Shown here piece after piece: positions 1,582 to 63,620 of a stretch of DNA of 64,000 nucleotides (positions within the stretch are counted from its first letter, which is position 1; each line of letters opens with the position of its first letter). A program made the translations under genes and the position numbers. The notes beneath the pieces are model-generated. The model searched no databases and had not been told where the DNA came from. It saw only the letters and a list, made by a program, of their open reading frames with translations. Source of the stretch: Octopus vulgaris (lineage: Eukaryota); NCBI GenBank assembly GCA_951406725.2, contig OX597837.1, positions 32,054,001 through 32,118,000 of the forward strand, given 5' to 3'.

Positions 1582-2015
1582 AAGGTGGCGCGCTAGCAGA
1601 AGCGTTAACTCGCCAGGCGAAAAGCTTCACGGTACTTCGTCTGCCGTTACGTTTTGAGTTCAAATTCCCCCGAGGTCGACTTTGCCTTTCATCCATTCGG
1701 GGTCGATTAAATAAGTACCAGTTACACACTGGGGTCGATATAATCGACTTAATCTGTTTGTATGTCCTTGTTTGTCTTCTCTGTGTTTAGCTCCTTGTGG
1801 GTAGTAAAGAAATAGATACTTCGTCTGCCGCTACGTTCTGAGTTCAAATTCCGCAGGGGTGACTTTGCCTTTCATCCTTTCGGGGTCGATAAATTAAGTA
1901 CCAGTTACGCACTGGGGGTCGATAAAATTGACTTAACCCGTTTGTCTGTCCTTGTTTGTCTTCTCTGTGTTTAGCTCCTTGTGGGTAGTAAAGAAATAGG
2001 TATTCCGTCTGTCTT
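1582..2015 (+). mobile_element. SINE family F (tRNA-like head, Nin/Deu-like core, LINE-like tail), 2 tandem units
   Basis: A-box-like CTAGCAGAAGCGTTA, B-box GAGTTCAAATTCC, core GGTCGACTTTGCCTTTCATCCTTTCGGGGTCGATAAATTAAGTACCAG, tail TTGTGGGTAGTAAAGAAATA; body repeated. Confidence 0.9.
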
Positions 2016-2078
2016 TCCGCGAGGACGTGGAATAAATATAGTATTATTGGACGCTCAGGAAAGAAGGAAAGAAGGAGG

Positions 2079-2113
2079 GTTTAACGTTTCGAGCGGAGCT
2101 CTTCGTCGGAAAC
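2079..2113 (-). ncRNA. Minimal hammerhead-ribozyme-like motif (Penelope-type), variant core
   Basis: Minus strand reads GTTT-CCGACGAA-GAGC-TCC-GCTC-GAA-ACGT-T-AAAC: helix I GTTT/AAAC, stem II GAGC/GCTC, palindromic ACGT helix III. The core deviates from CUGANGA. Confidence 0.55.
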
Positions 2114-2199
2114 ATAGGCGAATGAAAGATCCAGAGAAGGGAAGACAGAGGAAAAAATCGCCAACGGTACACACGCCAACGGTCACATTATGTATGTAT

Positions 2200-3522: not shown

Positions 3523-3757
3523 AAGGTGGCGAGCTGGCAGAATCGTTAGCACGTCGGGCAAACATGCTTAGCGGTATTTCGTCCGCCGCTACGTTCTGAG
3601 TTCAAATTTCGCCGAGATCGATTTTGCATTTCATCCTTTCGGGGTCGATTAAATAAGTACCAGTTACGCACTGGGGTCGATGTAATCGCCTTAATCCGTT
3701 TGTCTGTCTTTGTTTATCCCCTCTGTGTTTAGCCCCTTGTGGGTAGTAAAGAAATAG
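3523..3757 (+). mobile_element. SINE F, single unit
   Basis: AAGGTGGCGAGCTGGCAGAATCGTTAGC head through GTAAAGAAATA tail. Confidence 0.9.
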
Positions 3758-10243: not shown

Positions 10244-10488
10244 ATATATAAATACAATCAACTAAACACACACATCTTACACTATGTATGCAAATATAAG
10301 TTACTAAAGCTTATATATCTACATACATACATACACATCCACGTGTATATACAGGGTGCAAGAGGTATTTGGGGACATATTTGATAATTTAATAAAACAA
10401 CTCCAATCCAACAAAATGCCAAATGTATTTTTAAAATAATTTTCTCACAGATTCTCAGTAAACAAGTGCTCAGCCAGTATTTATTTAT

Positions 10489-10720
10489 AGGCGGTGAGCT
10501 GGCAAAACCGTTAGCACGTCGGACGAAATGCTTAGCCGTATTTCGCCTGCCATTACGTTCTGAGTTCAAATTCCGCCGAGGTCGACTTTGCCTTTTATCC
10601 TTTCGGGGTCGATAAATTACGTACCAGTTACGCACTGGGGTCGATGTAACCGACTTAATACCTATGTCTGTCCTTGTTTGTTCCCTCTATGTTTAGCCCC
10701 TTGTGGGTAATAAAGAAATA
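10489..10720 (+). mobile_element. SINE F, single unit
   Basis: TSD AGTATTTATTT at 10476-10486 and 10721-10731. Confidence 0.92.
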
Positions 10721-11194
10721 AGTATTTATTTTACCGGTACCAAAGGGACGAAATTTTTAGTCTAATGAATCGGCCCAGTGTTTCTTTTAAGCCTGGTACT
10801 TGGTTCTATCCTTTTATTTTGCCGAACTGATATATTACAGGGACGTAAATACGCCAACATGGGTTGTCAAGCGTTGGTGGGGGAGAAACAGAGGCCCTAA
10901 GGCGCCCTCACCTCTGCCAGGAATTTGAACTTAGAACGTAAAGACGGACGAAATGCCGTTAAGTATTTTGCCCGGAGTGCTAACGACTCTCCCAGCTCGC
11001 TGCCCTATGTTTAGCCCAATATATTATATTCTTTTATTCATCCCCAAGTAAAAGTATTTGATATTTCCTCGTACTTCCTATATTTCAGGCAGACACACAC
11101 ATATATAAGATAAATAATATATAAACATATGCATATATACACACATATATGTACATACCTACATCTATATGCATATATACATGCATATATGGGT

Positions 11195-21225: not shown

Positions 21226-21228
<3 letters not shown>
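20940..21228 (-). mobile_element. RTE (BovB-like) LINE 3' end, copy 1
   Basis: YFGHIMRRKSLEKDIMLGMVSGKRGRGRP..WLD..K...AQDR..WR is the RTE ORF C-terminus; (TAGA)n tail. Confidence 0.92.
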
Positions 21229-21257
<29 letters not shown>

Positions 21258-21262
<5 letters not shown>

Positions 21263-21620
21263 CTCAGTCGAAGTCGACTCTCGCTTACTCGATGGATCAG
21301 TGTCCTCCGGTCAGTTCTATCCTGGGCCGCTTCTTTCAGATTGGCTATGGCCATTCCCGTGTCACTCTTGATGGTGTCAAGCCAGCGGATTCTTGGTCGG
21401 CCTCTTCCTCTCTTGCCACTGACCATTCCAAGCATAATGTCCTTCTCCAGAAATTTACTCCGCATAATATGACCGAAATATGTCAATCTGTTCTTGGTGA
21501 TCCTAGCTTCTAGTGACATTTTCGGTTTGATCTGGTTAAGAACTTCTCCATTGATGAGCTTCGCTGTCCATGGAATCCGTAAATGTCTTCTCCAACACCA
21601 AAGCTCGAATGCATTAATTC
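21258..21620 (-). mobile_element. RTE (BovB-like) LINE 3' end, copy 2
   Basis: RINAFELWCWRRHLRIPWTAK...MSLEARITKNRLTYFGHIMR...GKRGRGRPRIRWLD; ends in (TA)n. Confidence 0.93.
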
Positions 21621-25085: not shown

Positions 25086-25150
25086 CCGTTATTACTGTAA
25101 GCATGATTTGTGCAGATCTCGCCCCGCTCTCTTTTATCCTTCGATCTTGA

Positions 25151-25481
25151 GGACGGCGAGCTGGCAGAAACGTTAGCACGCCGGGTAAAATGCGTAGCCG
25201 TATTTCGTCTGCCGTTACGTTCTGAGTTCAAATTCCGCCGAGGTCGACTTTGCCTTTCATCCTTTCGGGGTAGATAAATTAAGTACCAGTTACGCACTGG
25301 GGTCGATGTAATCGACTTAATCCGTTTGTCTGTCCTTGTTTGTCCCCTCTGTGTTTAGCCCCATGTGGGTAGTAGAGAAATAGGTATTTGGTCTGCCGTT
25401 ACGCACTGGGGTCGATACAATCGACTTAATCCGTTTGTTTGTCCTCTCTGTGTTTATCCCCTTGTGGGTAGTAAAGAAATA
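25151..25481 (+). mobile_element. SINE F, one unit plus an internally deleted second unit
   Basis: The second unit jumps from CCGTTACG to CACTGG (GTTACG microhomology). Confidence 0.9.
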
Positions 25482-25952
25482 GATCTTGTAATGGTCTGGT
25501 GCAACATGTGCCATAAGCCTAGTAGTTACCCCCAAGCAGTGGGTAAAAGACTTTAACGAGAGAACGGTGGTGTTGAGGACGTATTCCAAGTCTCTCGACT
25601 AAGGTCCTGGAGTAGTTAATAAAAGTGGCGACCCCCGCTCCCCCATTAGAGGGAGAGATAGAGGCAGTCAAGGAGGTGAGGACCTCCTCGAAAAAAGGAA
25701 AGAAAAGAAAGAATGTGGGCAACAATGGTTGCCCACCGAATGACCCTAAAGCTGCGGGAGGGGAGGAAGATCCTCCGGATAAAGCGGAGGTACCACACCC
25801 TCCCGTAGCAAAGGGAAGAAAAAGAAAAAAGAAAAAGAACGGGACATTGCCGGCGGTTAATGATACACTACCGGCATGCCCTGAAACTTTGTGCGAAGTA
25901 TGCCATCGACAGAGGAAACTGTATGTAGCCCCTTGTGGGCAGTAAAGAAATA
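25482..25952 (+). pseudogene. Coding-like fragment (candidate LINE ORF1 remnant) ending in an F/LINE tail
   Basis: GC-richer unique sequence; SYPQAVGKRL followed by a Lys/Pro-rich ORF (25625-25945); ends TAGCCCCTTGTGGGCAGTAAAGAAATA. The ORF1 identity is inference. Confidence 0.4.
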
Positions 25953-26476
25953 GGTCTCTTTTACTATGTTGCGAGGACGTAAATACACACCAGTTGTCAA
26001 GCGTTGGGGGTGACTCAAACACATGCACACACAGTGTAGTCCCATGCGTTGGAGATGGCCAAAATTATGCCAGTTAAATATGCCATGAAGCAATTAAGTC
26101 TAGTGCTACTATCCTATGACGCAGTACGCCAGAAAATTAAGGACATGAGTCAGGAAATATCAGTCTAATATATCAGCGTGATATTAAACGTAGGCCAGCA
26201 AAACTCAGCATGCAACGCGATTAATCAGCTGACGTCTCAATCAGCAGCCAATTAATAGGTTATGTTTTTCTCTTTTATTCCTTTATTTGTTTTAGTCGTT
26301 GGACGGTGGCCATGCTGGAGCACGGACTTGTATGTAAGTTTAATCGAAGAAATCGGCCCCAGTACTTATTTTAAGTGCGGAGCCCTATTCCATAGGTGTC
26401 TGATAAGGTACGGGGACGTAAGCAAACCAACAATTGTTTATCAAGCGGTGTGTGTGGAGAGGGCCCAAAGACAAAC

Positions 26477-26593: not shown

Positions 26594-27179
26594 GTGTATG
26601 TGTGTGTGTGTGTGAGTGTGTGTGTAGGAATTGTATTGGTTTGCTCGTGTTCAGTTCGCTACCGGACGAGGACCTCAGCATGTTCTGTCCACCAACCGCC
26701 GTCCGATGTGTAAGCCGTGAGTTTGAGCTGAGATAATAATTGTTTGATGAGCCGACTCGACCACACTGGGTCGTCATGGCTTGGCTGATGGGTACCATTT
26801 TTTTTATACTCACACCCAAGAGTATTTAAGTCAATTACATCGACCCCAGTGCTCACTGGTATTTATTTTATCGACCCCGAAAGAATGAAAGGCAAAGTCG
26901 ACCTCGGAGGAATTCGAGCTCCTAAGTCAGGACAGACGAAATACCGCTAAACAGTTCGTCTGGTGTGCTAAAATTTAGGCAATCCTGGGTTTTGGGTTAT
27001 GCAAAGAGACAACTTTATTCTGGAAACTGAACTGAATAGATTATTAACCAATGATCCTTAAACGCAAAGAAGCGAAACATCATGTGTAAATGTATCCTCG
27101 CAGATGTATGTTTACCAGGTGGTTACACCCGGCCACCGCTTGGACAATTTTGGTGTTTTGGTTCTCTTACCAACTACCC

Positions 27180-27805
27180 GGTTTATCAGCCGAGTCTATC
27201 ATCAATATCGTCCCGCCCCCTTCCTTCAAACGGGAAGGAAGAGCTTTTTTATCATACTTGTGGCTATGGCGAAAGAATGTATCTGGTGGACGCGTCTGAA
27301 AGGATTAGAGACAAACACTTTCCTCTCTGGTCAATCTCTCATCAACTTCTTCAAGTATCACTTGAAAAGGAAAGTGAGAGTAGAGAGGCAAGTTTTGTCT
27401 AGCGAATGTTTCAAAAACAGATGGGTGAATGTAGCAAGGATGGCACGTATGAATGACGAAGCCACCTTGAGCATAATCCTATGAACCCGGAAAAATTTAA
27501 AACAGAGAGTTACTTACTTGCAAATAAATGTGTTAACATGTGACATTATTGACCGAGGTTACCGTGGTCTTTTCCGTAGGCTTTTCTTTCCACGAATAAA
27601 CCTTATCTGTTTCCCCCTTTACACTCTATACCATGACATTTCTGTGATACACGATCCCTATTGATCGTTGTTTTTTTTCTTTTCTTTCCTTTTTATGATC
27701 CCTTCTGATCGAAAACCTACCCCACTTTTTTTTCTCACCAAAAAGAAAAGTTCTACCTTATAATTTGTCCCATCTGTGTTCAGCCCTGTGTGGCTAATAA
27801 AGAAA
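27180..27805 (+). mobile_element. Tx1/L1-clade-like LINE 3' end (ORF2 C-terminus plus 3'UTR)
   Basis: LSAESIINIVPPPSFKREGRAF/FIILVAMAKECIWWTRLKG...FFKYHLKRKVRVERQVLSSECFKNRW resembles the AK..IW..R...RW C-terminus of Tx1/L1 ORF2. Stop at 27484; T-rich UTR; a second UTR fragment lies at 53692-53820 (-). Confidence 0.72.
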
Positions 27806-27859
27806 CATATGTTTGTAAAAGAAGGTTTTCCTGTATTTCTGAACACCAAAATCCTCAAA

Positions 27860-31848: not shown

Positions 31849-32081
31849 TATGCGTAAGCGCGTGTAATGTATGTGTGTATGTGTATGTTTGTTTACGTTC
31901 CTATCAACAGCGTGTTGGCGGAAGAGTATGAAGCGAATGTGTTAAACCGTTTAGCACGATCAGAGGAACGCATGACGTACCGTGACGGATTTACTCCCGG
32001 CATGGTTCAATGGCTTTACTTATTGACAAAGCAGAATGCCTACCTCTCAGATCAACAAAACAGCTTCAGTAGCAGCATCTT

Positions 32082-33228
32082 CCTTTTCTACTCTAGGCAC
32101 AAGGCCGGAAATTTTTGGGGAGTTGTGACAGTCGATTAGATCGACCCCTATACGCAACCGGTACTTAATTTATCGACCCCGATAGGATCAAAGGCAAATT
32201 CGACGACGGCGAAATTTGAAATCAGAACGTAACGACAGACGAAATACTTGTTTCTTTACTACACACAAAGGGCTAAACACAGAAGGGATAAACAAGGACA
32301 GACAAACGGATTAAGTCGATTATATCGACCCCAGTGCGTAACTGGTACTTATTTAATCGACCCCGAAAGGTTGAAAGGTAAAGTCGACCTCGGCGGAATT
32401 TGAACTCAGAACGTAGCAACAGGCGAAATACCGCTAAGCATTTCGCCCGGTATGCTAACGTTTCTTATTTCTTTACTGCCCACAAGGGGTTAAACATAGA
32501 GGGGACAAACAAGGACAGACAAACGGATTAAGTCGATTATATCGACCCCAATGCGTAACTGGTACTTAATTTATCGACCCCGAAAGGATGAAAGGCAAAG
32601 TCGACCTCGGCGGAATTTGAACTCAGAACGTAACGACAGACGAAATACCGCTAAGCATTTCGCCCGGTGTGCTAACGCCTCTTATTTCTTTATTGCCCAC
32701 AAGGGGATAAACATAGAGGGGACAAAAAGGACAGACAAAAGGATTAAGTCGGTTATATCTACCCCAGTGCGTAACTGGTACTTAATTTATCGACCCCGAA
32801 AGATGAAAGGCAAGTCCAGTGCGTAACTGGTACTTCATTCATTGACCCCGAAAGGATGAAAAGCAAAGTCGACCTCGGCGGAATTTGAACTCAGAACGTA
32901 AAGACAGACGAAATACCTATTTCTTTACTACCCACAAGGGGCTAAACACAGAGGGAACAAACAAGGACAGACAAACAGATTAAGTCGATTATATCGACGC
33001 CAGTGCGTAACTGGTAATTATTCAATCGACCCCGAAAGGATGAAAGGCAAAGTCGACCTCGGCGGAATTTGAACTCAGAACGTAACGGCAGACGAAATAC
33101 GGCTACGCATTTCGCCCGGCGTGCTAACGTTTCCACCAGCTCGTCGCTTGAATATTCTTTTCTACTCTAGGCACAAGGCCTGAATTTTTTGGAGAAGGGG
33201 TCCAGTCGATTCTGCCAGCTCGCCGCCT
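32082..33228 (-). mobile_element. SINE F tandem array (~5 units) with mixed tails, plus an internally deleted copy (33153-33228)
   Basis: Internal units end in the GTAAAGAAATA-type tail; the terminal unit ends in GCCTTGTGCCTAGAGTAGAAAAG. Two junction types are present. Confidence 0.9.
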
Positions 33229-33434
33229 TAGCAGCAACACCTTCCATCGAACCAATGAAGTTCATGTACATGAGGCATCGATTTTCTAGATATAGCACCC
33301 AAATTTCCCTCAAATCATACTCCTACCGTCCTAGGATAGAGGTTTGTTATGCTCACTGCATGAAGTATATTAATACAGCTTTACTATTGTTTTCCGTGTT
33401 GATGGCGTTTCTGAGTAATAACCGTTAGAGATAT

Positions 33435-36301: not shown

Positions 36302-37218
36302 CGGTGGTTCGCAACCATTTTTACCTATGGACCTTTTTGTTTACCCCCATAGCTATTCGATATTTAAAAACTGGTTCTATAGACGCTTTCGAAATTTTGC
36401 TGTTAAATCGTTAACTTGTATAGGTTGACCTATGTAAAACATTACAGAAAGAAATATTGCTCTTTCTTATCTCTTTATTGCCCACAAAGAGGGGACGAAC
36501 AAGGACAGACAAACGGATTAAGTCGATTATATCGACCCCAGTGCGTAACTGGTACTTAATTTATCAACCCCGAAAGGATGAAAGGCAAAGTCGACTTCGG
36601 TGGAATTTGAACTCAGAACGTAGCCGGCAGACGAAATACCTATTTCTTTACTACCCACAAGGGGCTAAACACAGAGAGGACAAACAAGGACAGACAAACG
36701 GATTAAGTTGATTATATCGACCCCAGTGCGTAACTGGTACTTAATTTATCAACCCCGAAAGGATGAAAGGCAAAGTCGACTTCGGTGGAATTTGAACTCG
36801 GAACGTAGCCGGCAGACGAAATACCTATTTCTTTACTACCCACAACGGGCTAAACACAGAGAGGACAAACAAGGACAGACAAACGGATTAAGTCGATTAG
36901 ATCGACCCCAATGCGTAACTGGTACTTACTTAATCGACCCCGAAAGGATGAAAGGCAAAGTCGACCTCGGCGGAATTTGAACTCAGAACGTAACGGCAGA
37001 CGAAATACGGCTACGCATTTCGCCCGGCGTGCTAACGTTTCTGCCAGCGAACCGCCTTTATATGGCTCTTTCTTGCAACAAGTACATCTATGGGCAAAAT
37101 ATTTACATGGACCCTTAAAATACTACTTTTGGTACCCAATTTACTATTTTGCTTACGTTGATCCAAAACTTTTATATGGACTACTAGGGGACATATGGAC
37201 CACGGATGAAAACCACTG
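36302..37218. mobile_element. Old hAT/Charlie-like MITE interrupted by a SINE F array
   Basis: Ends CGGTGGTTCGCAACC and GGATGAAAACCACTG; no recognisable TSD. Confidence 0.5.
36466..37057 (-). mobile_element. SINE F array, 3 units, one head
   Basis: ~184-bp units; head at 37000-37057. Confidence 0.92.
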
Positions 37219-44108: not shown

Positions 44109-44271
44109 AGTCTAGTGGATCATCCGACACTAAATTCGCTCTGATTTCCTCTCTTCAAGTCAATCTCACACTTTACTACCGATGTTGACCACAGGAAAGA
44201 TAAGGGACTCCCGGTGTCCCTGCAAGCGTTTACGTTGGATCTCAATAAGCCGAAACGGTTACTGTAACGTA

Positions 44272-45061
44272 TGGCAGCGAGCTGGCAGACACGTTAGCGC
44301 ACCGGTCAAATACTTAGCGGTATTTCGTCTGTCTTTACGTTCTGAGTTCAAATTCCGCCGAGGTCGACTTTGCCTTTTCATCCTTTCGGGGTCGATTAAA
44401 TAAGTACCAGTTACGCACTGGGGTCGATGTAATCGACTTAATCCGTTTGTCTGTCCTTGTTTGTCCTCTCTGTGTTTAGCCCCCTTGTGGGTAGTAAAGA
44501 AATAGGTATTTCGTCTGTCTTTACGTTCTGAGTTCAAATTCCGCCGAGGTCGACTTTGCCTTTCATCCTTTCGCGGTCGATAAATTAAGTACCAGTTACG
44601 CACTGGGGTCGATGTAATCGACTTAATTCGTTTGTCTGTCCTTGTTTGTCCTCTCTGTGTTTAGCCCCTTGTGGGTAGTAAAGAAATAGGTATTTCGTCT
44701 GTCTTTACGTTCTGAGTTCAAATTCCGCCGAGGTCGACTTTGCCTTTCATCCTTTCGCGGTCGATAAATAAGTACTAGTTACGCACTGGGGTCGATGTAA
44801 TCGACTTAATCCGTTTGTCTGTCCTTGTTTGTCCTCTCTGTGTTTAGCCCCCTTGTGGGTAGTAAAGGAATAGGTATTTCGTCTGTCTTTACATTCTGAG
44901 TTCAAATTCCGCCGAGGTCGACTTTGCCTTTCATCCTTTCGGGGTCGATTAAATAAGTACCAGTTACGCACTGGGGTCGATGTAATCGACTTAATCCCTT
45001 TGTCTGTCCTTGTTTGTCCTCTCTGTGTTTAGCCCCTTGTGGGTAGGGTAGTAATGAAATA
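44272..45061 (+). mobile_element. SINE F array, 4 units, one head, single TSD
   Basis: TATTTCGTC at 44321, 44507, 44691 and 44875 (period 184-186). TSD GGTTACTGTAACGTATGG at 44257-44274 and 45062-45079. Confidence 0.95.
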
Positions 45062-45302
45062 GGTTACTGTAACGTATGGATCTCGTCCGCCGTTCTAAAA
45101 CGCTAATCCACTATCGTGGACAAATATCCAATTGATAGGCGTTACAATGATAAAGCGCAAAAAAAAAAAAAAACTGATCACGGTGTTATTTGAAATCAGA
45201 TCGCGGAAGGTCGGAATGTATAATGCAAGACAGTTTATCCGGAACAATAACATAACTAATTCGTCAGTTTGTATTCCGCAAGTACACTGTGTCAGTTATA
45301 TG

Positions 45303-51627: not shown

Positions 51628-52219
51628 TCTGTTCCTTCTCGAGCCACGCCTGGCTCATAGAGGGCCGGTTTCCCGGTTTCCTTGTCGTATAGGTTCCCCA
51701 CCTGGACGGGAAGCCGGTCCGTCGCAGTTGAGCTGCAAGATGCAGAAGGAAAGTGCGAGAGAAAGTTATGGCGAAAGAGTCAGCATAAGTTCGCCATTAC
51801 CTTCTGCCGGAGCCACGTGGAGCTTAGGTGTTTCGCTCATAAACACTCACATCGCTCGATCTGGGATTCGAACCCGCGATCCCTCGACCGCGAGTTCACT
51901 GCTCTAACCACTAGGCCATGTGCCTCTACAGAGGTTCGCCATTACCTTCTGCCGGAGCCGCGTGGAGCTTAGGTGTTTCGCTCATAAATACACACATCGC
52001 CCGGTCTGAGATTCGAACCCGCGATCCCTCGACCGCGAGTCCGTTGCTCTAACCACTAGGCCATGTGCCTCAACATAGGTTCGCCATTATATCCTGCCGG
52101 AGTCGCACGGAGCTTAGGTGTTTTGCTCATAAACACACACATCGCCAAGTCAGAAATTCGAACCCGCGATCCCTCGACCGCGAGTCCGCTGCTCTAACCA
52201 CTAGGCCATATGCCTCCAC
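51628..52219 (-). mobile_element. SINE family D (B-like head/core, different tail) with three tandem heads
   Basis: ~145-bp head at ~51790-51930, 51931-52075 and 52076-52219. TSD TCCTGT(G/A)AATTG at 51613-51624 and 52220-52231. Confidence 0.9.
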
Positions 52220-52551: not shown

Positions 52552-52921
52552 GAACCATACAGCGAGGGACGGTACATTCGTTTTTACCCAGCCCCTCCCA
52601 AAGTATGTGAACTTGTGTCTATGAGAACTTACTGTTAAAACATCTGTGAATATTTAAAAAAAAAACAAACGAAAAACCAACCTGAGGCTGAGAAAAAGAA
52701 AAAAAAACAATTCAGAGAAAATACCAAAAAAAAAAAACAAAAAAAGAAATTCCTACAAAACAAGCGAAAGACAAACGCAATGAGAAGAACAAAACGAAAC
52801 AGGAAATAGAATTTATAAAAAGAAAAAAATACACAAAAAGCAAAAACTATGCAAAATATAAAAAATAAGGTGTAGGCGTGTCGTTAAGAAGTGAGTTTCG
52901 CCACCACGTGGTTCTTTTACC

Positions 52922-53339
52922 TATTTCTTTACTACCCACAAGGGGCTAAACACAGAGGGGACAAACAAGGACAGACATAGGTATTAAGTCGATTACATCG
53001 ACCCCAGTGCGTAACTGGTACTTTAATTTATCGACCCCGAAAGGATGAAAGGCAAAGTCGACCTCGGCGGAATTTGAACTCAGAACGTAACGGCAGACAA
53101 AATACCTATTTCTTTATTACCCACAAGGGGCTAAACACAGAGGGGACAAACAAGGACAGACATAGGTATTAAGTCGATTACATCGACCCCAGTGCGTAAC
53201 TGGTACTTTAATTTATCGACCCCGAAAGGATGAAAGGCAAAGTCGACCTCGGCGGAATTTGAACTCAGAACGTAACGGCAGACGAAATACCGCAAAGCAT
53301 TTCGCCCGGCGTGCCAACGTTCCTGCCAGCTCGCCGCCT
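52922..53339 (-). mobile_element. SINE F array, 2 units
   Basis: TSD CACGTGGTTCTTTTACC at 52905-52921 and 53340-53356. Confidence 0.95.
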
Positions 53340-53628
53340 CACGTGGTTCTTTTACCATTTAGTATTTCGTTTCGAGCCCTCCATCCTGCTGACCTTTGGT
53401 AAAATCATTACGTTCTTGTCGACTGAGGAATGTTCACCTGGAATGGAGAACACGATATTTCATAGTGGGTTGACAGGGTGGCTACAATCAGTTTTGCCTT
53501 TTTTGTTTTCTTACAATGTTGGTCCTAAGATCTTTAAGGTTGCCGTTCTTATCAGGTCTAACATTGCAATAACCCCTTCGTTTATCGGATCTCTGATATG
53601 TCGTAGAACCATCGGCATTCGTAATAAG

Positions 53629-53691: not shown

Positions 53692-53820
53692 TTACAAGGT
53701 AGAGCTTTTCTTTTGGGGGTTGAAGAAAACAAAAAAACAAGAGAAAAAAAAGAAAAAAAAGGGGTGGCGTAGGTTTTCGATCAAGAGGGATAGTAAAAGG
53801 GAAGAAAAGAACAAAAAAAA
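53692..53820 (-). mobile_element. 3'UTR fragment of the Tx1/L1-like LINE inside (GATA)n
   Basis: The reverse complement contains TGATCGAAAACCTAC and AAAAGAAAAG(C/T)TCTACCTT, as at 27705-27760. Confidence 0.7.
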
Positions 53821-53906
53821 TAATAAATGAATAAAATAAAAATAAAAAGAATAAAAAGAAAAAAAAGAAAAAGATAGATAGATATATAGATGGATAGATA
53901 GATGAA

Positions 53907-56085: not shown

Positions 56086-56504
56086 AGGCGGCGGCGAGCT
56101 GGCAGAAACGTTAGCACGCCGGGCGAATTGCTTAGCGGTATTTCGTCTGCCGTTACGTTGTGAGTTCAAATTCCGCCGAGGTCGACTTTGCCTTTCATCC
56201 TTTCGGGGTCGATTAAATAAGTACCAGTTACGCACTGGGGTCGATATAATCGACTTAATCCGTTTGTCTGTCCTTGTTTTTCCTGTCTGTGTTTAACCCC
56301 TTATGGGCAGTAAAGAAATAGGTATTTCGTCTGCCGCTACGTTCTGAGTTCAAATTCCGCCGAGGTCGACTTTGCCTTTCATCCTTTCGGGGTCGATTAA
56401 ATAAGTACCAGTTACGCACTGAGGTCGATATAATCGACTTAATCCGTTTGTCTGTCCTTGTCTGTCCCCTCTATGTTTAGCCCTTTGTGGGCAATAAAGA
56501 AATA
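56086..56504 (+). mobile_element. SINE F array, 2 units
   Basis: One head; junction AAAGAAATA|GGTATTTCG. Confidence 0.93.
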
Positions 56505-56922
56505 AGGAAAGTGAAAGAAGCCTGTCATATAAGTTTGTGTGTCTGTCTGTGTTTGTCCATTACCACCGCTTGACAACCGGTGTTTGTGTGTTTACGTCCC
56601 CGTTATCTAGGGATTCTGCAAAAAAACACCGATAATAATAAACATTAAAAAAACGAAATAAGTCGGGGAGGGATTTGTTCGACTAAAACCCTTCAAGACG
56701 TTGCTCCAGCACGACCGCAGCCAAAAGAGAGAAAGAAGTACAAAGTAAAAAAAGAGAAAGGAAATAAAGATCGAAGTATTTAAGGATGTTGTGAATCTCA
56801 TGGTCCCACCAACCCGTCATTGAAGGTATTGCTCTAGCATGGCCGCTGACTAACGAAGAAAACTACTGAAAATGAATGTAGAAGGGTGGGGGTGAATATG
56901 TAAAAAAGAACAAACAAAATCA

Positions 56923-63215: not shown

Positions 63216-63620
63216 AAGGCGGCGAGTTGGTAGAAACGTTAGCACGGCGGGCGAAATGCGTAGCCGTATTTCGTCTGCCGTTACGTTCTGAGTTCAAATT
63301 CCGCCGAGGTCGACTTTGCCTTTCATCCTTTCGAAGTCGATAAATTAAGTACCAGTTACGCACTGGGGTTGATGTAATCGACTTAGTCCGTTTGTCTGTC
63401 CTTGTTTGTCCCCTCTGTGTTTAGCCCCTTGTGGGTAGTAAAGAAATAGGTATTTCGTCTGCCGTTACGTTCTGAGTTCAAATTCCGCCGAGGTCGACTT
63501 TGCCTTTCATCCTTTCAGGGTCGATAAAATCAGTACCAGTTACGCACTGAGGTCGATGTAATCGACTTAATCCCTTCCCCCCAAATTTGAAGCCTTGTGC
63601 TTCCAGTAGAAAGGATTATT
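63216..63620 (+). mobile_element. SINE F dimer with mixed tails, running into (ATT)n
   Basis: Unit 1 has the GTAAAGAAATA tail; unit 2 has GCCTTGTGCTTCCAGTAGAAAGG followed by (ATT)n to ~63850. Confidence 0.92.

Follow-up and report, generated by a model that had tools for sequence, protein, structure and literature searches.

The 64-kb stretch of Octopus vulgaris DNA analyzed here (the window) has a GC content of 38% and is dense in microsatellites and SINEs. One of these SINEs, designated F, is about 231 bases long and was found at 10 loci within the 64 kb. At the focal locus (44257-45079), F forms an array in which one tRNA-like head is followed by four tandem units. BLAST with the focal head and first unit yielded 30 matches in the window. 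The features of this array and of the other F loci are listed in Table 1, together with the names used for them in the text.

Table 1. Positions of the focal array, the other F loci and a LINE remnant in the window
Feature	Position	Strand	Remarks
Focal array (44272): 5' TSD copy	44257..44272	+	18/18 identical to 45062-45079; final two bases overlap head
Focal array: single tRNA-like head, bases 1-46	44273..44318	+	A-box-like motif 44283-44293
Focal array: unit 1, from base 47	44319..44504	+	B-box at 44346, core, tail A
Focal array: unit 2	44505..44688	+	
Focal array: unit 3	44689..44872	+	sister of unit 2, UFBoot 97
Focal array: unit 4	44873..45061	+	most diverged of the four; tail altered
Focal array: 3' TSD copy	45062..45079	+	begins GGTT
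Array 1582: F dimer and 20-base start of third unit	1584..2018	+	TSD not found
Monomer 3529	3525..3756	+	no significant TSD; reference for public-contig alignment
F monomer 10490-10720 with flanks	10476..10731	+	11-bp TSD, starts AGTATTT
Array 25151: F dimer, second unit internally deleted	25143..25488	+	7-bp TSD
Array 32082: mixed array	32068..33245	-	B-type head 1-21 and B tail (33157-33227), four F units, B-tailed last unit
Array 36466: F trimer	36454..37074	-	15-bp TSD (14/15), starts AAGAAAG; C-type tail on last unit
Array 52922: F dimer	52905..53356	-	perfect 17-bp TSD, starts GGTA
Array 56086: F dimer	56090..56504	+	units 6.5% apart; 3' end abuts another SINE; no TSD
Array 63216: F unit and B-tailed unit	63218..63612	+	junction is reference in second contig alignment
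3' remnant of L1/Tx1-group LINE (ORF2 C-terminus, 3' UTR)	27055..27807	+	candidate F partner; BLAST E 2e-5

F consists of a head, a core of about 120 bases and a tail; its A-box is weak and its B-box lies at base 74-75. A B-box with one mismatch and a weak A-box were found in all four heads tested, using box consensus motifs and an A-box search that tolerated up to 3 mismatches. ARAGORN detected no tRNA genes, F heads included, and an F dimer (head at 56090) was without a match in Rfam. Judged by its sequence, F is probably a tRNA-headed SINE. The family majority contains T runs of at most 3 and none of four; individual copies do carry longer ones. Sister SINEs share the head and core of F and carry a different tail (B). 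TSDs of 7-18 bp were present at 6 of the 10 F loci. When scored against a shuffled background, a clear TSD was found at five of the eight arrays (44272, 52922, 36466, 25151 and 32082) and at one of the two monomers, while none rose above background at 1582, 56086, 63216 or 3529. The TSD of array 32082 emerged only when an upstream mini-element was included. In TSD-bearing copies, 0-3 additional letters, mostly A, lie between the 5' TSD and the head.

Outside the window, at least 47,699-263,899 contigs aligned to F per public run. A metagenome scan with the F tail motif gave no matches, the same scan with the F core motif gave one match, to an unrelated SINE-like element, and viral and prokaryote contigs scanned for F gave none. 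The metagenomic element (L001:870-1060) has a head unlike that of F and a 24-base exact match to the F core, and its Rfam search returned one chance-level match only. From this sequence match, the F core is probably a widespread conserved domain, and it may resemble a domain of the named SINE superfamilies (Nin/Deu/Inv/Meta/CORE). Three tRNA-derived octopus SINEs were reportedly described by Ohshima and Okada in 1994, and the octopus SINE OR2 has been named as a CORE-SINE. F may be one of those three octopus SINEs. An LTR-like (Cassandra-type) structure for F was ruled out, as the 3' end is without a terminal repeat. Three F core motifs were absent from the text supplements of a study of clam SINE arrays (PMC11481361; here and below, cited papers are represented by excerpts of their text).

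The preliminary description had reported eight loci as multimers of a unit of about 184 bp, and all eight were confirmed. The arrays hold 2-5 F units and are dispersed. A single head, as had been proposed, was present in seven of the eight; array 32082 departs from this rule in that its units 3 and 4 retain head bases 15-46. The fixed join inside the head was likewise borne out. Head base 47 is the point of attachment for 13 of the 23 tail-A ends in the window and base 15 for 2; the remaining 8 continue into other DNA. All 13 base-47 joins share one register, with 7 of the 13 matching exactly the junction string first reported. The base-47 join follows what we take to be an anticodon-like triplet. 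The 15 tails that continue into family sequence are not independent insertions.

The outer 3' junctions had been said to resemble the inner site, and this resemblance held: over the first four letters of eight junctions, 22 of 32 places matched GGTA, against 8.0 expected (0/200000 draws). At the TSD-bearing loci (44257, 53356, 10476, 25143 and 37074), the junction-like letters were already in the target. Two junctions previously listed as exceptions proved not to be, since the one given as 3758 agrees, at 3757, with the base-47 site at 4/7 letters and the one at 56505 agrees with the base-15 site at 5/7. The junction at 25953, one of these eight, does not belong to F: upstream of it are just 35 bp of tail and, before these, an ORF1-like piece in place of an F body. 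This internally deleted piece (25482-25952, + strand) runs directly into an F-type tail and is 82% identical to an O. sinensis protein that has a weak zinc knuckle (E 0.058). By sequence, it is likely an ORF1-only passenger. It has a possible TSD (10/12) near 25126 and at 25953, and the F dimer at 25152-25481 lies in its 5' end.

The letters following a tail varied with tail subtype. T-type tails were followed by xxT in 17 of 17 cases and C-type tails by AG(A/G), the base-15 site, in 4 of 6 (p 0.0017 by junction; 0.027 collapsed by locus). This covariation is explained equally by two LINE partners with different endonucleases. The second landing site at base 15, its link to tail subtype and an L1/Tx1-group candidate partner in the window are additions to the earlier reading.

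Tail A of F aligned with the last ~45 bases of the LINE remnant (27764-27807) with a score of 63, while the best of 300 shuffles scored 36. The ORF of the remnant matches proteins with RT and zf-RVT domains. Full-length relatives of these proteins carry an AP endonuclease (PF03372), RT (PF00078) and zf-RVT (PF13966), and their nearest solved structure is human L1 ORF2p (E 1e-72). On the basis of this domain set and the resemblance of the relatives to L1 ORF2p, the partner was assigned to the L1/Tx1 group, through an indirect link between remnant and full-length protein (34% over 76 aa). The sequence comparison thus makes the remnant a candidate partner of F. A second remnant of the partner LINE 3' UTR lies at 53751-53828 (- strand) and is homologous to 27660-27735. 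One window ORF piece was 97% identical over part of an O. bimaculoides entry. A reverse transcriptase C-terminal remnant at 21226-21618 (- strand) is present in two copies at a 313-bp period and, by its motifs, is presumably RTE-like. Pfam found no match in four short window ORF pieces, this remnant among them. An RTE partner for F (remnant 21226-21618; available text of PMC13295347) was dropped because the F tail matches the L1/Tx1-group remnant.

A partner of this kind raises the question of whether protein alone could aim F at its own heads. In such a scheme, a Tx1-type endonuclease would recognize the head site, with two partners for two sites, and no RNA pairing would be needed; merging and recopying would be unchanged. 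Target specificity is found in many LINEs of the Tx1 clade, with other transposons as the target in some cases, and is attributed to the endonuclease (PMC4494074, in excerpt). Consistent with a protein preference, the base preceding the TSD was C in four of the five clear TSDs and also at both head sites. However, outer targets agreed with the head site at just 4-6/7 letters, which is looser than in specific Tx1 cases, the 3' end (27807) of the sole LINE remnant checked in the window was not located in an F head, and the partner was placed in the L1/Tx1 group as a whole. We regard aiming by protein alone as rather unlikely. In our analysis, a share of the RNA in aiming is favored over endonuclease aiming and is given about an even chance.

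Unit relationships divided the arrays into two groups. The preliminary description had cautioned that units within 44272, 52922 and 36466 share private variants, and these variants were seen. In these uniform arrays, the focal units were grouped with UFBoot 97, the units of 52922 were 1.1% apart and units 2 and 3 of 36466 formed a pair (87). Given this close within-array kinship, 44272, 52922 and units 2-3 of 36466 need no self-insertion. In contrast, the units of 1582, 32082 and 56086 and unit 1 of 36466 were 6.5-8.4% apart, as compared with a mean of 7.9% between loci. Thus, the unit phylogeny clustered by array at 44272 and 52922, while the units of mixed arrays were as far apart as those of different loci. 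Both processes are likely at work, with insertion seeding arrays and recopying extending them.

The four focal units form one clade within one perfect TSD, which argues for growth of this array by recopying. Recopying or a multimeric RNA is more likely here than three separate insertions. The focal array also carries both alleles of a family-wide dimorphism and so is not a clean copy of one monomer. This last observation bears on a scheme in which a monomer, once inserted, is duplicated as DNA through slippage or unequal exchange, as has been suggested for the SINE-derived satellites of reptiles. Such duplication fits 52922 and most of 44272 and 36466. It leaves unexplained the different tails and the two dimorphism alleles within one array (44272), gives no account of junction-like TSD starts and offers no reason for one register in 13/13 joins and in two organisms. 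As sole cause, it is largely refuted by the mixed arrays, and we judge it very improbable.

Heads and bodies of arrays also differed in their divergence. Measured against the F majority, where subfamily differences could mimic both gaps, array heads differed at 29 of 272 non-CpG places (10.7%) and first cores at 26 of 768 (3.4%; p 2e-5), and the B-tailed last unit of array 32082 differed in its core at 15 of 119 places, compared with 21 of 476 in the four inner units (p 0.002). Monomers, with two controls, had no such gap between heads (6/68, 8.8%) and cores (15/192, 7.8%). Within arrays, concordance was about 11/13 at base +14 and about 8/13 at base +17, as compared with about 4/10 at a downstream dimorphism. 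These counts, made by eye, seem to lean toward the prediction of self-insertion.

Array 32082 provided the strongest case for insertion. Its joins are, in order, at base 47, 15, 15 and 47, and the upstream tails are of types T, C, C and T. DNA duplication does not produce such alternation. The TSD is degenerate (13/16, p~0.005) and spans from the B-type head piece to the B-tailed last unit. Younger F units thus sit inside the TSD of an older element. At the upstream end (33157-33227, - strand), B-type head bases 1-21 meet a B tail via a 5-base overlap and the next head starts at base 2. The head pieces there agree at 16/20 places, and this end may hold a third nested insertion, located where the head begins.

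The age layering of array 32082 also bears on template jumping in one reverse transcription, in which the enzyme would stall at base 47/48, on the 3' side of the anticodon-like loop, and continue on the tail of a different RNA. Reverse transcriptase halts at tRNA loops that carry modifications or have been cleaved. The F head forms a stable hairpin with the join at the edge of its loop, and mixed lineages and the single head would be explained together. However, the pieces should then be equally old, whereas the TSD of 32082 differs at 3/16 to 4/18 places and its last unit is more diverged than the inner units. The link between tail type and site is also unexplained, and the head is not foldable as a tRNA by ARAGORN or Rfam. 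We consider template jumping highly unlikely.

In 32082 and 63216, the last unit had been reported to differ in its tail from the inner units, which was confirmed for both, and each mixed array has a different combination of units. These combinations, with their B-tailed last units, are difficult to reconcile with an origin from multimeric masters only. Under that explanation, the base-47 join would have arisen once or a few times and each read-through RNA would be inserted in one piece, flanked by a single TSD. GGT would occur at the outer junctions as 3' microhomology to the RNA continuation, and insertion into older copies would be unneeded. One TSD does enclose the whole array at 44272, 52922, 36466 and 25151, the family majority has no more than 3 T in a row, and units cluster by array in 44272 and 52922. 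Further, at the dimorphic site, units 1 and 2 carry the same variant-type pair in 1582, 36466 and 44272. The age layering in 32082 and a nested joint in public run X4 count against masters as the only source, which we consider unlikely.

Public contigs were examined for the same joints. Each of the four public runs used, which represent organisms A and B, contained the tail-to-base-47 joint, and such joints made up four of the best 15 of 622 joint records; none of these best 15 was a base-15 joint. Runs X15-X20 (shares 0.06-0.15) were left out, and run X11 may be of RNA. In run X4, one joint leads from base 62 to the beginning of a head, at a depth of 620 (one of the best 12 of 738 records). 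This joint is as expected for an unmerged nested form, with a full copy at base 47, a 16-base duplication and the head kept. Thus, the proposal of self-insertion with a homology-resolved 5' junction draws support from the mixed arrays, 32082 above all, and from one nested joint in public contigs, but not from the focal array for which it was put forward.

In run X1, at least 674 contigs aligned five letters beyond the tail and then diverged (median loose part 255, agreement 0.38); the chance of a five-letter match past the tail is about 1.4%. With the second reference, 394 and 411 contigs were clipped at the tail end and had AT-rich flanks (among the best 12 of 220 records). The comparison of at least 674 with 394 contigs involves different references and thresholds, with arrays mixed with unique flanks, and gives an enrichment and not a rate. 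Depth through the junction was 0.49-0.54 of tail depth, which is compatible with the 13/23 of the window; contig depth does not give copy number. Three of the four runs also contained an opposite-strand joint, 3523/3590 in window coordinates (at least 7-10 contigs each). In it, heads are inserted in antisense orientation close to the B-box, at a point where a base-47-like site is present on the reverse strand. Joints from 3688, again in three of the four runs, lead from B-tailed copies to a new head (3528, 3532) or to near base 47-64 (3590). These joints indicate that the sister, B-tailed family also chains.

F joins its own family at head base 47, and less often at base 15. We give about equal weight to belief and doubt in a model in which new copies land there in older copies and merge without a second head, and arrays extend by recopying. 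Under this model, Pol III transcription would start at the single head and pass beyond the tail into the following unit, whose TATTT would serve as a partial terminator, and the RNA would end in tail-GGUAUUU or run on as a multimer. TATTT ended 42-50% of Pol III transcripts in mammalian cells (PMC8466645, in excerpt); the first unit also carries the motif, at bases 49-53, and Pol III has to read through it there. The LINE endonuclease would nick loosely at pyrimidine-purine steps, and pairing of the RNA end with the nicked strand would favor GGTA-like sites, for which the best match in the genome would be base 47 in the heads of this family. Base 15 would be favored by C-type tails, whose ends are AG(A). 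In SART1Bm, accurate priming rose from 36% to 76% when the RNA ended in a target-like AGG (excerpted text of PMC7265360).

An ordinary insertion at base 47 would leave a top-strand end of 16-18 bases identical to incoming bases 47-62. This overhang would pair with bases 47-62 of the new cDNA and prime the second strand there; annealing of the top strand to cDNA is a standard model of 5' truncation (PMC2912911, in part). Because the duplicated target would be identical to bases 47-62 of the incoming copy, merging would occur without a second head. The new head would be dropped, leaving old head, new body and old body, with the inner TSD absorbed. Each dimer would then be a source of RNA with the same end, in a feedback loop, and unequal exchange, slippage or repeated copying of one RNA would yield uniform arrays like 44257-45079. 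A more far-reaching version, possible but tentative, is that F directs its own insertion: in a tandem source, the few letters downstream of the tail would be both RNA guide and terminator, and changed letters would move the landing site (base 47 or base 15) while the LINE protein remained unchanged. Each self-insertion would then make a better source for more, and dispersed repeats would seed tandem arrays by retrotransposition itself. A tRNA-intron or circular-RNA origin of the joins had no support and leaves the base-15 joins unexplained.

The closest published parallel is found in another mollusc. Scapharca broughtonii has TSD1-(SINE)n-TSD1 arrays of up to 15 units, which hold about 3% of copies and for which unequal recombination was proposed; like F arrays, they lie within one TSD and have a single unit with a complete tRNA head, the other units being head-truncated. 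In these clam arrays, the first and inner tails are truncated, whereas F units are full-tailed, 15 of 23 F tails join a unit and the join resembles the TSD starts of the family itself (PMC11481361, excerpted text). Rodent B2 and Dip likewise form multimers, with 40-49% of copies in multimers of up to eight units, and their origin was left between insertion and multimeric templates (PMC8466645, in excerpt). Unlike in F, B2 and Dip units are full-length and joined head to tail, not inside the head (as described in the available part of PMC10702118).

The preliminary description had also seen F as turning into a satellite, a claim that did not hold for arrays of 2-5 dispersed F units. Squamate SINE-derived satellites (sSat) comprise up to hundreds of homogenized, subtelomeric units, with unequal recombination as origin, and some variants, like F units, combine a head end, body and LINE-derived region (PMC10702118, in part). 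As in sSat, the F unit is shorter than the SINE (184 of 231 bases) and one terminal unit, the first, is extended by the head. Four or more homogenized middle monomers, the further criterion of the reptile paper, were found in none of the eight arrays, the focal array having two, and the satellite label is therefore premature. Also unlike sSat, for which the excerpted text reports no target-site link, F arrays are short and often of mixed lineages.

With respect to target choice, F resembles the crocodilian SINEU-3/Tx1-Mar system, in which a repeat is the preferred target, tandem copies arise by sequential insertion and the mover is of Tx1 type, the F counterpart being the L1/Tx1-group candidate. 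However, the target of SINEU-3 is an unrelated Mariner and full-length copies sandwich the TSD, whereas F would target its own head and the inner TSD would be absorbed; Tx1 target specificity was there defined as more than 20% of flanks in one repeat (PMC4494074, in excerpt). F is also like SART1Bm and R1Bm in that pairing of the RNA 3' end with the target would aid priming, which is experimental in those elements and proposed for F. Unlike F, SART1Bm and R1Bm are autonomous LINEs with specific endonucleases and host-repeat targets (PMC7265360, in part). F is not a new element class; target-choosing Tx1 passengers, one-head SINE arrays and RNA-assisted priming have each already been described. 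A literature search that covered few subscription journals returned no SINE targeting its own head with the TSD absorbed and no such octopus arrays, and the excerpted text of PMC13282606 contains no mention of octopus F arrays.

If the model is correct, F provides a concrete way for a dispersed SINE to become tandem arrays without chance recombination as its starting point, and a natural case in which the 3' end of an RNA may decide where a LINE enzyme lands. Its own copies would serve F as a self-renewing safe harbor. In annotation, copy counts and age estimates are distorted, as chains hold about half of the tails of this major octopus SINE.

Two further arrangements were observed beside the F arrays. 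At 1999-2190 (+ strand), the third unit of array 1582 ends after 20 bases, either as a copied RNA trailer or through a later insertion. The sequence after this stub may resemble a Penelope/hammerhead repeat. At 51789-52216 (- strand), the head half of another SINE is present in three 145-bp tandem copies, of which only the last has a complete tail, a geometry that is the opposite of that of the F arrays.
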